Virus record (IMG/VR): IMGVR_UViG_2974723840_000001
Span: 1-15,328 of that record
Length of the DNA: 15,328 nucleotides
Reading direction: 5' to 3' (one strand)
DNA from: Exceevirus Xc38
Taxonomy: Duplodnaviria > Heunggongvirae > Uroviricota > Caudoviricetes > Schitoviridae
This document shows positions 392-6,491 of the stretch, piece after piece; within the stretch, counting starts at the first letter, position 1; each line of letters starts with the position of its first letter. The translations under genes were made by a program, and so were the position numbers. Below the pieces are notes generated by a model. It was given only the letters and a program-made list of their open reading frames with translations. It made no database searches and was not told the DNA's origin.

Positions 392-427
392 AAACAAAAT
401 GGATACACGCTAAGAGCGCATATCCAT
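391..427 (-). terminator. Rho-independent terminator closing the minus-strand two-gene unit
   Basis: Minus-strand RNA reads AUGGAUA-UG-CGCU-cuu-AGCG-UG-UAUCCAU followed by UUUGUUUU. The 13-bp stem is continuous only on this strand (two G.U wobbles; C/A mismatches on the other strand). Confidence 0.85.
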
Positions 428-490
428 AACGATTAAGATAATGAGTAGTATAAATACACCAGCCCACATAAGTTCATAGATGTGATTCAT
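410..490 (-). CDS. 26-aa single-pass hydrophobic peptide MNHIYELMWAGVFILLIILIVMDMRS (not in ORF track)
   Basis: AGGAG (502-498) lies 7 nt before the ATG (490-488). The stop TAG at 412-410 sits inside the terminator. Uncharged core LMWAGVFILLIILIVM. Confidence 0.7.
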   Translation of the reverse strand: MNHIYELMWAGVFILLIILIVMDMRS

Positions 491-513: not shown

Positions 514-533
514 AGAGTGAGATAACTCACTCT
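514..533. other. 8-bp intercistronic stem-loop between the 92-aa ORF and the peptide ORF
   Basis: AGAGTGAG-ataa-CTCACTCT begins 5 nt after the stop at 539. The minus-strand tail (UCUUAAU) is weakly U-rich, so it may be a partial terminator or stabiliser. Confidence 0.65.
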
Positions 534-538
534 ATTGA

Positions 539-817
539 TTAGTCAAATGACATAACACCATCTGCATTAACAGACACACCTAACTCTTTCATCTTATCTG
601 CTAACTCTTTCTTAGCTATCACTAGCTTAAGAGTATCAGCAGTATCAGAGATCTCTGCTAGATTAGATGCCTTTGATTCAGCTATGTATGTGATGCGTTC
701 AACAGCACCAATGCCTTGCTCTGCAGCTTGGAAGGTACGATCTATCATCTTAAGACCACGCATAGCTGTACCAGTTAATGCACCTACTAATGTTTGAGGT
801 TGTTGTGCTTGAGACAT
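539..817 (-). CDS. Hypothetical 92-aa helical protein (start revised from 847 to 817, MSQAQQPQTL...)
   Basis: Long ORF on the strand opposite the late genes. AGGAG (829-825) is 7 nt before the ATG at 817, whereas the ATG at 847 has no suitably spaced RBS. No recognisable family. Confidence 0.75.
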   Translation of the reverse strand: MSQAQQPQTLVGALTGTAMRGLKMIDRTFQAAEQGIGAVERITYIAESKASNLAEISDTADTLKLVIAKKELADKMKELGVSVNADGVMSFD

Positions 818-847
818 GGAAATACTCCTGATTGGTTGATTGAACAT

Positions 848-869
848 TCCATCTATAAGCGTAGCGATT
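848..869 (-). promoter_or_regulatory. Candidate N4-type hairpin promoter, copy 2 (TCCATCTATAAGC-GTA-GCGATT), upstream of the 92-aa ORF
   Basis: Matches 25-46 at 19/22. Predicted +1 at 850-851 gives a ~34-nt leader containing the AGGAG. Confidence 0.5.
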
Positions 870-3385: not shown

Positions 3386-4138
3386 ATGTTCCTACAAGAT
3401 GTATACGATGCGCTATGCGCTGCAGAGTTCCAACTATCATCCATTGGTGATACTGGTGAAATTAAACCAGAGAAGAGAGCTTTAGTTAATACTATTATCC
3501 AATCTGGTATTACTGATATTAATAAGTACTTCACTCTTAAAGAGGGTGAGCTATTACTTCGTACGAAGAATGGTAAGAACAAGTACGAGTTAGTGCCGGA
3601 GAATGCTGTATCTACTGGTAATCAGTTTGGGTTTATTATTGATAGTGTAGATGATCCTTTTATTGGGGATATTCTGCAGATTACTCAGATACATGACTCA
3701 AAAGGTAAGTCTCTTTGGCTGAATGCTGACACTACTCATCGTGTTGATACTGATGATATCTTTGGGTATCACCCAGGATTAGTACAGAAGAGTGGTATCA
3801 ATATGGTGAATTATAATACCCTTAAGTTCCCTGAAGGCCATGAAGCTGATGATTACTTGGTGAAGTATAAGGCCAAGCTTAAACCAGTAGAAAGAAACTC
3901 AGATCCTACTACTACATTCTTGGAATTACCTGATGTTTACTTAGGTGCATTGTGTAACTACGTTGCGTCACGTTTCTTCAACCCTAAGGGTGCAGAGACT
4001 ATTGGTCGTGGTATGTTCCATGGTGGTAATAACTACTGGACTAAGTATAAAGAGGACATTGAAACTCTACGTGCTAACATGGCAAGTATTAGTTCATTAG
4101 GTGAAACTACCAAGTTTGAAACTGGTGGATGGGTATAA
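3386..4138 (+). CDS. Probable head-to-tail adaptor / virion protein (N4 gp67-like)
   Basis: 250 aa directly after terL, matching the size and position in N4-like phages. Helical N- and C-terminal blocks (LQDVYDALCAAEF; YLGALCNYVASRFF). Confidence 0.7.
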   Translation: MFLQDVYDALCAAEFQLSSIGDTGEIKPEKRALVNTIIQSGITDINKYFTLKEGELLLRTKNGKNKYELVPENAVSTGNQFGFIIDSVDDPFIGDILQITQIHDSKGKSLWLNADTTHRVDTDDIFGYHPGLVQKSGINMVNYNTLKFPEGHEADDYLVKYKAKLKPVERNSDPTTTFLELPDVYLGALCNYVASRFFNPKGAETIGRGMFHGGNNYWTKYKEDIETLRANMASISSLGETTKFETGGWV

Positions 4139-4147
4139 ACCCTAGAT

Positions 4148-4182
4148 ACAAAGAAGCCCTCAATTAAGAGGGCTTTTTGTTT
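4148..4182. terminator. Bidirectional Rho-independent terminator
   Basis: GCCCTC-aattaa-GAGGGC, followed by TTTTTGTTT on + and by UUCUUUGU on the minus-strand RNA. Confidence 0.85.
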
Positions 4183-4205
4183 CGGAATGACAACCAATCA
4201 GGCTT
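4148..4205 (-). ncRNA. Candidate ~58-nt small RNA AAGCCUGAUUGGUUGUCAUUCCGAAACAAAAAGCCCUCUUAAUUGAGGGCUUCUUUGU
   Basis: Lies between a minus-strand sigma70 promoter and the minus face of the terminator and contains no ORF. Its 5' segment is complementary to the leader at 827-851. Confidence 0.5.
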
Positions 4206-4211
4206 GACTTG

Positions 4212-4240
4212 ATATTAGTTATCTTAAGGATAGAAGTCAA
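4212..4240 (-). promoter_or_regulatory. Leftward sigma70-type promoter
   Basis: TTGACT (4240-4235), 17 nt, TAATAT (4217-4212). Predicted +1 is the A at 4205. The -35 hexamer is the same as in the terminase promoter. Confidence 0.6.
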
Positions 4241-4286: not shown

Positions 4287-6491
4287 ATGGAAATTAATTT
4301 AAACCAACCTGTTCAGGTTCAGGGTAAGTTAACGAACTGGAAAAATGAACCAGATATTCGTGATCTTAAACAGGATCTGACAGAAGCAACTAGCTACTAC
4401 TCTACCCAAACCGGGAAGATTGAACGCTGGCTAAACGTGCTTCACATGGAAGGTAGTGCTAAACCAGTTACAGCTGATGGTAAGAGTAAGGTTGCTCCTA
4501 AGCTTGTGCGTACACAAGCAGAGTGGCGTTATTCAGCCTTGTCAGAAGTATTCTTGTCTAGTACTGACTTGTTTAATGTGAATCCTGTTACATGGGAAGA
4601 CGTTAAGGCAGCAGAACAGAATGAGCTAATTCTGAATAATCAGTTTGATACTAAGATTGATAAGGTTGCTTTCATCGATAAGATGATTCGTACTTGTGTC
4701 AATGAAGGTACTGCTATTCTCCGTACTGGATGGAACCACAAAGTAGAGAAGGTTACTCAAGAAGTACCTAACTTTATGATGTATGAAGATCCTTCTTTTA
4801 TGCCTGAATTACAGCAGCATCTACAGATGATGCAACAGCAACCAGATTATTTAGAAGATCAACCTGAAGAAATCAAATTAGCTGTAGAGCAATCACAAAT
4901 TCAAGGTGTACCTATTCGTGTATTCAAACAAGGTACTCGAATGGAGACTACTGAGAAGGTAATTGCAAACCACCCAACAGTAGAAGTAGTAGACTTCACT
5001 TCAATCTATGTTGACCCTACTTGCCAAGGCGATTTAAGTAGGGCCAATTTCATTATTCATAAGTTCGAGACTTCTATGTCTGACCTAAAGAGAGATGGTC
5101 GATATAAGAACCTTGATAAAATTGTTGTTCAGAATGCAACAGTAACATCCGATATAGGAAGCCAATATGACTCATCAAACCCACCAGGTTCATTCACCTT
5201 CAAAGATGAAGCGCGTAAAAAAATGTATGCATACGAGTACTGGGGATATTACGATTTTGACGATTCTGGCATTGCTCGCCCTATGGTATGCACTTGGGTT
5301 GGTGACACGATAATCCGATTAGAAGAGAACCCTTATCCTGATAAGCAGTTCCCTTTTGTATTCATTCCATTCATGCCTGTTAAGGGATCTTTGTATGGCG
5401 AACCTGATGCTGAGTTACTGGAAGATAACCAGAAGATTAAAGGTGCTGTAACACGAGGCATCATTGATCTGTTAGCTAAGACTTCTGCAGGTCAGACTGG
5501 ATTCATGAAAGGAGCTATGGATTCTGTAAACATGCATAAGTTCCGTACTGGTCAAGACTTCGAGTTCAATCCTGGACAACACCCACAGTATGCCATTCAA
5601 ACTCAGACCTTTGCTGATATTCCAGAGTCTGCTCCATTTATGTTGCAGATGGTGAATACGGATTCTGAATCATTGACTGGTGTGCGTGCCTTTGCAGGAA
5701 CAGGTGTTACTGGTGTTAACTTAGGACAAACAGCAGAAGCTGTACGTACTGCTACAGATGCAGCAACCAAACGTGAGATTGGTATTGTTCGTAGACTTGG
5801 TAATGGTATGGTTCAAGTAGCACGTAAGTTCTTAACCATGAATGCTATGTTCTTGGAAGAGGAAGAAGTAGTACGTGTTACTAATGACAACTTTGTTCCT
5901 GTTAAACGTGATGACTTAGCAGGTAACTTTGATCTACGTATTAATATCTCTACTCCAGAGGAAGACGTAAGTAGATCTCAACAGCTTAGCTTTATGATGC
6001 AAACTCTAGGTAATAACTTACCTCCTGAATTGCCTATTAAGATTATGGCTAAGATTGCTAAGTTGCATAAGATGCCTGATCTAGCTAACTACTTGGATAA
6101 CTGGCAACCTCAGCCTGATCCAATGCAAGAAGCTCTTAAACAACTTGAGATTGCTAAGATCCAAGCAGAAACTGCATTGCTTAATGCTCAAGCTCGTGAA
6201 GCAGATGCTAAGTCATTTGTACAAGGTGCTAAGGTTGGTGTTGAACAAGCTCGTGCAGGTCAGATGCAAAGTCAGACTGACAAGAACAACTTGGACTTCT
6301 ACAACAAAGCCAATGGCATTGATCATGCAAATGCTAAAGACTTGCAACAACAGAAGTTGGATACTGATATTGTTAAGGATACCCTTAAGAATCAGAACAA
6401 CCTTGACTTGGCTAACAAGCAACATAACACTGCTTTGTTGTTAGAGCATGCTAAGGCAAGTTTGCAACCAAAAGAAAAATCTGTATCATAG
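4287..6491 (+). CDS. Portal protein (N4 gp59-like)
   Basis: 734 aa with N4-portal-type segments (KLTNWKNEP, PKLVRTQAEWRY, EQNELILNNQF) and a long Q/A-rich coiled-coil C-terminus (portal barrel). AGGAA RBS. Confidence 0.92.
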   Translation: MEINLNQPVQVQGKLTNWKNEPDIRDLKQDLTEATSYYSTQTGKIERWLNVLHMEGSAKPVTADGKSKVAPKLVRTQAEWRYSALSEVFLSSTDLFNVNPVTWEDVKAAEQNELILNNQFDTKIDKVAFIDKMIRTCVNEGTAILRTGWNHKVEKVTQEVPNFMMYEDPSFMPELQQHLQMMQQQPDYLEDQPEEIKLAVEQSQIQGVPIRVFKQGTRMETTEKVIANHPTVEVVDFTSIYVDPTCQGDLSRANFIIHKFETSMSDLKRDGRYKNLDKIVVQNATVTSDIGSQYDSSNPPGSFTFKDEARKKMYAYEYWGYYDFDDSGIARPMVCTWVGDTIIRLEENPYPDKQFPFVFIPFMPVKGSLYGEPDAELLEDNQKIKGAVTRGIIDLLAKTSAGQTGFMKGAMDSVNMHKFRTGQDFEFNPGQHPQYAIQTQTFADIPESAPFMLQMVNTDSESLTGVRAFAGTGVTGVNLGQTAEAVRTATDAATKREIGIVRRLGNGMVQVARKFLTMNAMFLEEEEVVRVTNDNFVPVKRDDLAGNFDLRINISTPEEDVSRSQQLSFMMQTLGNNLPPELPIKIMAKIAKLHKMPDLANYLDNWQPQPDPMQEALKQLEIAKIQAETALLNAQAREADAKSFVQGAKVGVEQARAGQMQSQTDKNNLDFYNKANGIDHANAKDLQQQKLDTDIVKDTLKNQNNLDLANKQHNTALLLEHAKASLQPKEKSVS

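Follow-up and report, generated by a model that had tools for sequence, protein, structure and literature searches.

The window analysed here comprises the first 15.3 kb (15,328 nucleotides) of the 79,328-bp genome of the N4-like phage XC38 (Exceevirus Xc38, Schitoviridae; IMG/VR record IMGVR_UViG_2974723840_000001). Between its gp67-like virion protein gene and its portal gene lies a short leftward unit that is probably the gene of a small phage RNA (sRNA). The unit reads as a gene because its promoter hexamers are invariant while the spacer varies, a block near the predicted start is invariant, and the hairpin that follows changes in a compensatory manner. The invariant block is complementary to the leader of the first early gene (early gene 1), and base pairing between the two is plausible and partly supported by comparisons that include a second genus. 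That the small RNA represses early gene 1 through this pairing, which is the whole of the proposed mechanism, is a claim we come close to favouring without quite doing so. The parts of the unit are the following.

4235-4240, minus strand: -35 hexamer TTGACT of a leftward sigma70-type promoter; GTTGAC is invariant in 11 of 11 phages, the sixth base of the hexamer being T or A.
4212-4217, minus strand: -10 hexamer TAATAT, which is TATTAT or TACTAT in relatives, with A2 and T6 always kept.
4203-4205, minus strand: predicted start of the small RNA, placed by geometry about 7 nt past the -10 hexamer.
4184-4202, minus strand: 5' seed block, CCUGAUUGGUUGUCAUUCC in the RNA, a 19-nt stretch CCTGATTGGTTGTCATTCC of which 17 nt are identical in 11 phages.
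4176-4183, minus strand: A-rich linker from seed to hairpin, which on the plus strand is the T-run of the rightward terminator.
4154-4175, both strands: bidirectional intrinsic terminator hairpin of 8 bp, five of them G-C, with a predicted fold of -22.7 kcal/mol (z -4.7).
4136-4153, minus strand: U-rich tail CUUUGUAUCUAGGGUUUA past the hairpin, which includes the gp67-like stop codon of the plus strand; 4136-4152 is invariant in four complete genomes.

The closest phages in our collection, all of them Schitoviridae, are the Acinetobacter phages nACB1 and At2 (~78% nucleotide identity) and, after these, Presley. The paper describing nACB1 names XC38 as its closest relative and reports a terminal repeat of 973 bp for nACB1 (PMC10057805). 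Our clade set of 11 phages consists of the window, nACB1, At2, two IMG/VR contigs and six metagenome contigs, and the eight contig loci divide equally into four of window type and four of At2 type. Coding genes among the 11 are only ~80% identical, and the portal proteins of the further clade phages are ~78-97% identical to that of the window. Portal homologues at 45-50% identity lie in a different synteny, hence the comparison does not extend to distant relatives. Relatives occur as contigs in 24 public runs from wastewater, food production, faeces and sludge, four of which were compared.

The sequence-only reading of the window had placed a leftward TTGACT-17-TAATAT promoter-like site at 4240-4212, and the site is there. 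Its spacer is 17 nt long in all 11 phages with only two invariant columns, and the TAnTATC of the -10 region is invariant throughout the clade. The 8 nt separating the -10 hexamer from the block vary in sequence and are constant in length. Invariant hexamers around a variable spacer in 11 phages argue, on sequence evidence, for a promoter belonging to the candidate itself. The near-consensus -35 hexamer suggests that the RNA may not need a late activator, and the label 'late-expressed' given to it in the earlier reading is not supported.

Downstream of the predicted start, CCTGATTGGTTG at 4202-4191 on the minus strand is followed by a T and then by CATTCC at 4189-4184. All 11 phages share 17 nt of this stretch, TGATTGGTTGTCATTCC, without change; variation is seen at the 5' edge, which reads CC-TG in some phages and CCTTG or ACTTG in others. 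The four complete genomes share 52 invariant segments of at least 15 nt, about six of them non-coding, and the block (4184-4200) and the tail past the hairpin (4136-4152) are two of these six. The block is mostly unpaired in the predicted fold, so that it would form a conserved and accessible seed. We found no convincing further copy of it in the four genomes, and a search of IMG/VR for the exact 17-mer added only one duplicate of the clade contig L050 and two unrelated chance matches beside a tRNA.

This degree of conservation bears on the reading that the unit is a relic, a promoter and terminator left behind after loss of a leftward MazG or dUTPase gene, with the leader match a product of chance and shared ancestry. 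A leftward MazG-like or dUTPase gene does occupy the position between the gp67-like and portal genes in FBKp27, CB1, Kc283, SABI and LUZ7, while the Acinetobacter clades are without it. A leftward promoter beside the portal gene would accordingly be ancestral, because other Schitoviridae have a leftward gene there. A relic should decay, however, whereas here 17 nt remain invariant in phages whose coding genes have diverged by about a fifth, and the promoter hexamers are kept while the spacer drifts. As an account of the unit as it stands today we therefore consider this reading very unlikely; the Acinetobacter unit may nevertheless be the remnant of such a lost gene, later recruited as an RNA gene. 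In other Schitoviridae genera, tRNA genes are often found behind the leftward MazG-like or dUTPase gene.

The bidirectional terminator that had been described downstream of the promoter is likewise present. CTTTGTATCT directly follows the hairpin on the minus strand. Hairpin changes among relatives are compensatory (CCCTC/GAGGG, CCCAC/GTGGG and GCCCCT/AGGGGC), leftward T-runs occur in all subtypes, and in phages of At2 type the better of the two T-runs, TTTTTTGTA, is on the leftward strand. A good T-run is found only leftward in the At2 type and in Presley, and the function kept appears from these sequences to be that of a leftward terminator. Fold, compensatory changes and leftward T-runs together are consistent with an intrinsic terminator that closes a short non-coding transcript. 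Hairpins were judged sequence by sequence, as MAFFT misaligned two hairpin subtypes in the 11-sequence alignment and RNAalifold called only three hairpin pairs on it. The sRNA layout proposed earlier (promoter, seed, linker, hairpin and U-tail) is thus supported by the comparison of relatives, while the transcript itself is a prediction. A coding role for it was rejected: the only minus-strand open reading frame (4197-4033, TTG start) crosses the hairpin, and the relatives' hairpin indels would break its frame; an 11-codon frame in Presley's leftward transcript is missing from the Presley relative L057. A scan of the whole window with Rfam covariance models gave no match at E up to 1. On the plus strand, 4136-4152 (TAAACCCTAGATACAAA) includes 14 nt past the gp67-like stop codon that are invariant in the four complete genomes; this segment could be the leftward RNA's tail or a conserved 3' untranslated element of the late mRNA.

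The proposed target lies 3.3 kb away, at the very end of the genome, and its parts are as follows.

1-944, both genome ends: exact direct terminal repeat, equal to genome 78385-79328 by sequence identity.
851-865, minus strand: early promoter motif GCTACGCTTATAGAT of the virion RNA polymerase (N4) type, with a second copy at 42-25.
818-850, minus strand: predicted 33-nt 5' untranslated region (leader) of early gene 1, with GGAAUG at 850-845, CAACCAAUCAGG at 838-827 and the Shine-Dalgarno sequence AGGAG at 829-825.
539-817, minus strand: early gene 1, 92 codons, the first gene within the terminal repeat.

The plus strand of the window carries late genes, namely those of a gp69-like protein, the large terminase subunit, the gp67-like virion protein (3386-4138), the portal protein (4287-6491), the major capsid protein and later ones. 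The minus-strand genes at 1-850 sit within the terminal repeat, so they recur at the other genome end, where the early genes begin. The repeat holds the complete first early operon, with promoter, 92-codon gene, a 26-codon peptide gene, terminator and second promoter copy. Everything in this operon is consequently present twice per genome, and the second copy of the target leader is at genome 79211-79222. The sequence-only reading had taken the target for an early-type gene, and as the first gene of a 944-bp terminal repeat behind an N4-type promoter motif it is one.

GCTACGCTTATAGAT precedes the orthologous gene in every relative. The G of GGAATG sits 12-13 nt past the centre of the mini-hairpin in this motif, and LUZ7, an N4-like Pseudomonas phage, has its mapped early starts at G residues 13-14 nt past the hairpin centre (PMC9163698). 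It is therefore reasonable to take GGAAUG as the 5' end of the mRNA, as had been proposed, although the start is predicted from spacing. On the minus strand GGAATG (850-845) is followed by TTCAAT and CAACCAATCAGG (838-827), with AGGAG at 829-825 and ATG at 817. An ATG at 845-847, within GGAATG, is in frame in the window, where it would extend the reading frame to 102 codons, and out of frame in nACB1; 817 is for this reason the likely start codon. By itself the leader is predicted to be unstructured (-2.8 kcal/mol). The early gene 1 protein belongs to no Pfam family and has a weak PHROG match only (E 0.0025). Distant homology (E 4e-4) links it to Presley_95, whose gene is the first in Presley's terminal repeat.

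The complementarity described earlier, 12 nt plus a further 6 nt between the candidate RNA and the leader of the 92-codon gene, exists in the window as given, and the '~5-nt bulge' between the two blocks is roughly right, the actual feature being an internal loop with 6 nt on the mRNA side and 1 nt on the RNA side. The duplex of the window's leader with the RNA is predicted at -26.1 kcal/mol. The earlier argument that chance is much less likely fares unevenly: the window alone cannot dismiss chance, while targeted tests on the genome and the relatives make a stronger case. An exact match of at least 12 nt to the 148-nt intergenic region is found in 0.14% of the 75-nt windows of the genome, and the leader's pairing with the 5' part of the RNA is equalled in only 5 of 10,551 genome windows.

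Leaders were compared in seven clade phages; in the rows below each runs from the predicted 5' end to the start codon.

Window: GGAATG-TTCAAT-CAACCAATCAGG-AG
nACB1: GGAATGA-TCATCAAC-CAACTAATCAGG-AG
L053: GGAATGAC-TAACAAACTT-ATCAGG-AG
G001: GGAATGA-T-CAACTAA-CTTA-AGG-AA
At2: GGAATGA-TTAAT-CAACC-T-AT-AGG-AG
L051: GGAATGA-T-CAATCAAT-AGG-AG
L050: GGAAT-CAAT-CAACTAATCAAG-GAG

In all seven phages the best predicted duplex spans the leader from its first base to the AGG of the Shine-Dalgarno sequence, with energies of -18.8 to -26.1 kcal/mol and z-scores of -3.6 to -7.1 against shuffled leaders. When only the middle of the leader is shuffled, between the first six bases and the Shine-Dalgarno sequence, the observed pairing beats 98% of shuffles in five of the seven phages (p<0.02). 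In a genome-wide ranking of pairing partners, the leader comes first or close to first in XC38 and nACB1, and in At2 and G001 it falls among the top 1.1%. L050 has CAAG at the corresponding place in both sites. Covariation of the two sites in relatives, which had been named as a check, is found in part: pairing potential is kept across the clade, but there is no strict co-variation, the block being fixed while the leader drifts.

Presley provides a comparison in a second genus, and the pairing hypothesis was fixed before this phage was examined. Its portal protein is ~50% identical to that of the window and the gene order is the same. The intergenic region between its gp67-like and portal genes contains a hairpin with a T-run, TTTTTTCTTTT, on the leftward strand only, and a leftward TTGAAA-17-TGTAAT that abuts a rightward TTGAAT-17-GATAAT; this promoter region is too conserved between the two Presley-type genomes to set hexamers apart from spacer. 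Nine nucleotides from the hairpin is an 11-mer, GGCTTATATCA; elsewhere in the 77.8-kb genome it occurs only on the other strand, in the first early gene's leader (two copies, because of the repeat), and begins there at the predicted +1. A match of at least 11 nt between the intergenic region and a 75-nt window is found in 0.3% of genome windows (p ~0.003). An independent relationship of this kind also speaks against the unit being a relic. Pairing is predicted to be clade-specific, with cognate duplexes at -18 to -26 kcal/mol and non-cognate ones at -7 to -16 kcal/mol. Ranking by energy with the full 76-nt 5' part of the Presley RNA was not significant, 24% of windows being equally good; because long queries raise the duplexfold background, Presley was assessed by exact matches instead. 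The 5' part of the candidate leftward RNA at 4548-4659 of Presley (L033) resembles the early leader (TATAACAACGCC compared with TATATCAACGTC).

A number of observations weigh against the pairing or against the unit itself. The window contains 14 position pairs of exact inverted 12-mers where 7 would be expected under uniform composition, and a repeat search lists 43 inverted pairs; that inverted 12-mer matches are common here also suits a chance origin of the leader match in a relic. In At2 and G001 the middle of the leader is no longer complementary, and nothing compensates for the loss (p 0.32 and 0.13 when only the middle is shuffled); in general the block stays invariant while the leader drifts, sometimes uncompensated (At2, G001 and L057). 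GGAATG, as the start of an early transcript, and the Shine-Dalgarno AGG could be conserved for other reasons, and the seven clade phages are related and hence not seven independent tests. Within the 11-mer, L057, the only Presley relative examined, shows a U-U mismatch that is not compensated. In the 112-nt RNA predicted for Presley, the 11-mer pairs with the RNA's own 5' part, which in this modelled fold is possibly a self-sequestering stem or the result of a wrong start prediction. Taken alone, the leftward promoter-like site is unremarkable: it scores 9 of 12, and the window has 22 such sites against a shuffle mean of 41.5. The contigs from public runs carry no information on the strand, ends or level of any RNA; those from RNA libraries span the terminator into the portal gene, which proves nothing, as they carry no strand and could come from DNA carry-over.

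A block that does not change while the leader does would be expected of a seed constrained by something beyond this one target; on a rival reading, the RNA is real but has its main target elsewhere. Such an RNA could act in cis, as a perfect antisense to late read-through RNA entering the portal gene, or on host mRNAs; in the cis version it might, for instance, guide RNase III processing or interfere with the facing promoter. The leader match would then be secondary or decaying. The plus strand over the locus is fully complementary by construction, with a top duplex of -48 kcal/mol, and facing promoter-like sites share the -10 region in the window and in Presley. The RNA-library contigs that bridge the terminator into the portal gene fit read-through, weakly for the reasons just given. 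Left unexplained are Presley's different 11-mer, which links the same two places, and the constant span of the pairing from +1 to the Shine-Dalgarno sequence. With regard to host mRNAs, an exact 17-mer search of ~185,000 prokaryote species genomes, limited to exact copies of the block, gave 43 scattered matches, about the chance number, and none in Acinetobacter. Overall we consider it unlikely that the RNA's main target is read-through late RNA or a host mRNA.

The sequence-only reading had itself named a shared protein-binding site as the alternative, and one further feature of the region suits it.

4187-4216, plus strand: rightward promoter-like site ATGACA-18-GATATT, which overlaps the block and shares the -10 region with the leftward site.

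The block would then act as DNA, as -35 region and neighbouring operator of a rightward portal promoter, and the phage protein that recognises it would also bind the similar sequence where early gene 1 begins; one regulator would lower the early gene and raise or lower the portal operon, and the small RNA would be irrelevant. The overlap counts against the sRNA interpretation, and both rightward hexamers are conserved; the two sites are oriented alike to their downstream genes, and identity at the DNA level would lead one to expect the same co-variation as RNA pairing. The block lacks dyad symmetry, however, and its conservation covers 10 nt of the would-be rightward spacer, which is unusual for a promoter. 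An inserted A in four phages of At2 type lengthens the rightward spacer to 19 nt without altering the leftward promoter, and no similar sequence lies ahead of any other late operon. In Presley ~30 nt separate the 11-mer from the rightward -35-like hexamer downstream of it, whereas its distance to the hairpin is kept at 8-9 nt; this speaks against an operator because the distance matters for an RNA and not for an operator. The rightward -35 hexamer of Presley is not kept in L057, whereas the leftward promoter is. Finally, several differences in nACB1, L050, G001 and L051 set a C of the block against a leader U, which favours RNA over a shared DNA site because a G.U pair is kept where DNA would mismatch; with about two independent events this is weak support. 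We judge the operator account improbable overall, and it is possible that both facing promoters work and compete.

Of the interpretations considered, a small RNA directed at early gene 1 remains the likeliest. From the observed sequence features, conservation and pairing potential we infer the following course of transcription, timing and repression. The intergenic region between the gp67-like and portal genes would form a small leftward transcription unit, transcribed by host sigma70 RNA polymerase from near 4205 to the bidirectional terminator near 4148. This would yield a non-coding RNA of ~58-63 nt; two blocks of its unpaired, invariant 5' stretch would pair with the 33-nt leader of early gene 1, a gene itself transcribed by the virion RNA polymerase. 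CAUUCC would bind the 5'-terminal bases of the mRNA, and CCUGAUUGGUUG would bind the segment leading into the Shine-Dalgarno sequence. The likeliest effect would be occlusion of the ribosome-binding site, possibly with faster decay of the mRNA. The first early gene would thereby be turned off once the far genome end, which carries the RNA gene, is inside the cell and read by host polymerase.

A bolder version, which we advance tentatively, is that the RNA has co-evolved, across two Acinetobacter phage genera, with the 5'-terminal bases of the first mRNA that the injected virion RNA polymerase makes, that it may have arisen from the promoter and leader of the lost MazG or dUTPase gene, and that it serves as an injection timer. 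With the RNA gene at the last-entering genome end and read by the host enzyme, the earliest gene would be silenced when injection is complete. The resemblance to a split type I toxin-antitoxin module that had been suggested finds no support. The gene behind the paired leader encodes a 92-residue protein in which charged residues are frequent, whereas a type I toxin is a small hydrophobic peptide, and the hydrophobic peptide of this operon is only the downstream cistron. The gene of a type I antitoxin RNA overlaps or adjoins its toxin gene, whereas three late genes stand between the RNA unit and early gene 1.

Several observations were made on the operon and on other parts of the genome. The 26-codon hydrophobic peptide gene (411-490, minus strand) is conserved in six clade members, ending in ...IIMDM or similar, and is followed by a 13-bp terminator at 427-399. 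A second pairing site at its ribosome-binding site was considered and rejected: complementarity to the seed is not conserved in relatives, although G001 has ATCAGGAG there. Directly past the early gene 1 stop codon (514-541, minus strand), five of six phages keep A(A/T)CCAATAGAG ahead of an intercistronic hairpin; the window's own sequence at this place is AATCAATAGAG, which resembles the block partner CAACCAATCAGG, and the element may offer one more place for pairing or be bound by a protein. On the minus strand at 878-892, AAAAGGATTCTTACT is invariant over 15 nt in the four genomes, which places it among the few non-coding sequences conserved to this degree, and lies 13 nt upstream of the early promoter motif, where it may be an upstream promoter element. 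The four-genome comparison gave two more invariant non-coding segments, of 15 and 19 nt, at genome 50839-50890. At 45-214, contigs of relatives in three public runs exchange ~165 nt for 34-37 other letters, which marks an indel hotspot in the terminal repeat.

N4-like phages are the textbook case of a temporal programme run by three polymerases, and to our knowledge all known control in it is exerted at transcription. If the proposed mechanism is correct, it would add a post-transcriptional layer to this programme, and the RNA would join the very small number of trans-acting RNAs of virulent phages for which a phage target is defined. The invariant 17-nt seed offers a handle for finding host targets, and the finding would point attention to the highly conserved first early gene of these phages.

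Within the same phage family, LUZ7 produces putative late-stage sRNAs from intergenic sequence between orf69 and orf70 in its replication region, and roughly one in five of its late starts lies on the early strand (PMC9163698). The LUZ7 sRNAs are, as our candidate would be, small intergenic non-coding transcripts; their locus is away from the portal gene, no target has been proposed for them, and no homology is apparent.

In layout the candidate resembles bacterial base-pairing RNAs such as RybB, OmrA/B and MicC, which combine a sigma70-type promoter, an invariant, unpaired 5' seed that begins only a few bases from +1, an A/U-rich linker and an intrinsic terminator, and whose targets vary more than the seed. 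The predicted promoter, invariant and mostly unpaired 5' seed, linker and terminator of the XC38 unit follow this order, and its target is likewise more variable than its seed. RybB, OmrA/B and MicC are chromosomal, Hfq-dependent and act on many host targets, whereas the candidate is phage-encoded and has no Rfam match.

Among phage RNAs, P22 sar and lambda OOP are ~70 nt long, have their own promoter and an intrinsic terminator (bidirectional in P22), and pair with phage mRNA, sar with the ribosome-binding site of ant. The candidate shares with them the short unit with its own promoter and intrinsic terminator. Both are cis-encoded and fully complementary to their targets. The target proposed here is distant and partly complementary, and full complementarity would exist only in a hypothetical read-through late RNA; with respect to the early leader, which is a distant locus, the candidate does not belong to this cis-antisense class.

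The c4 RNA of phages P1 and P7 is an antisense RNA that acts in trans on the icd-ant mRNA, where two short blocks cover the ribosome-binding region and translation is blocked; it arises by processing of a longer RNA from the same operon, and its role is in prophage immunity. Our candidate differs in having its own promoter and terminator, in lying 3.3 kb from its target and in belonging to a strictly lytic N4-like phage, and it has no sequence or Rfam similarity to c4. It resembles c4 in its proposed action in trans within the phage and in its two separate pairing blocks over the ribosome-binding region. The candidate belongs to no described family and would, among phage RNAs, stand closest in logic to P1/P7 c4.

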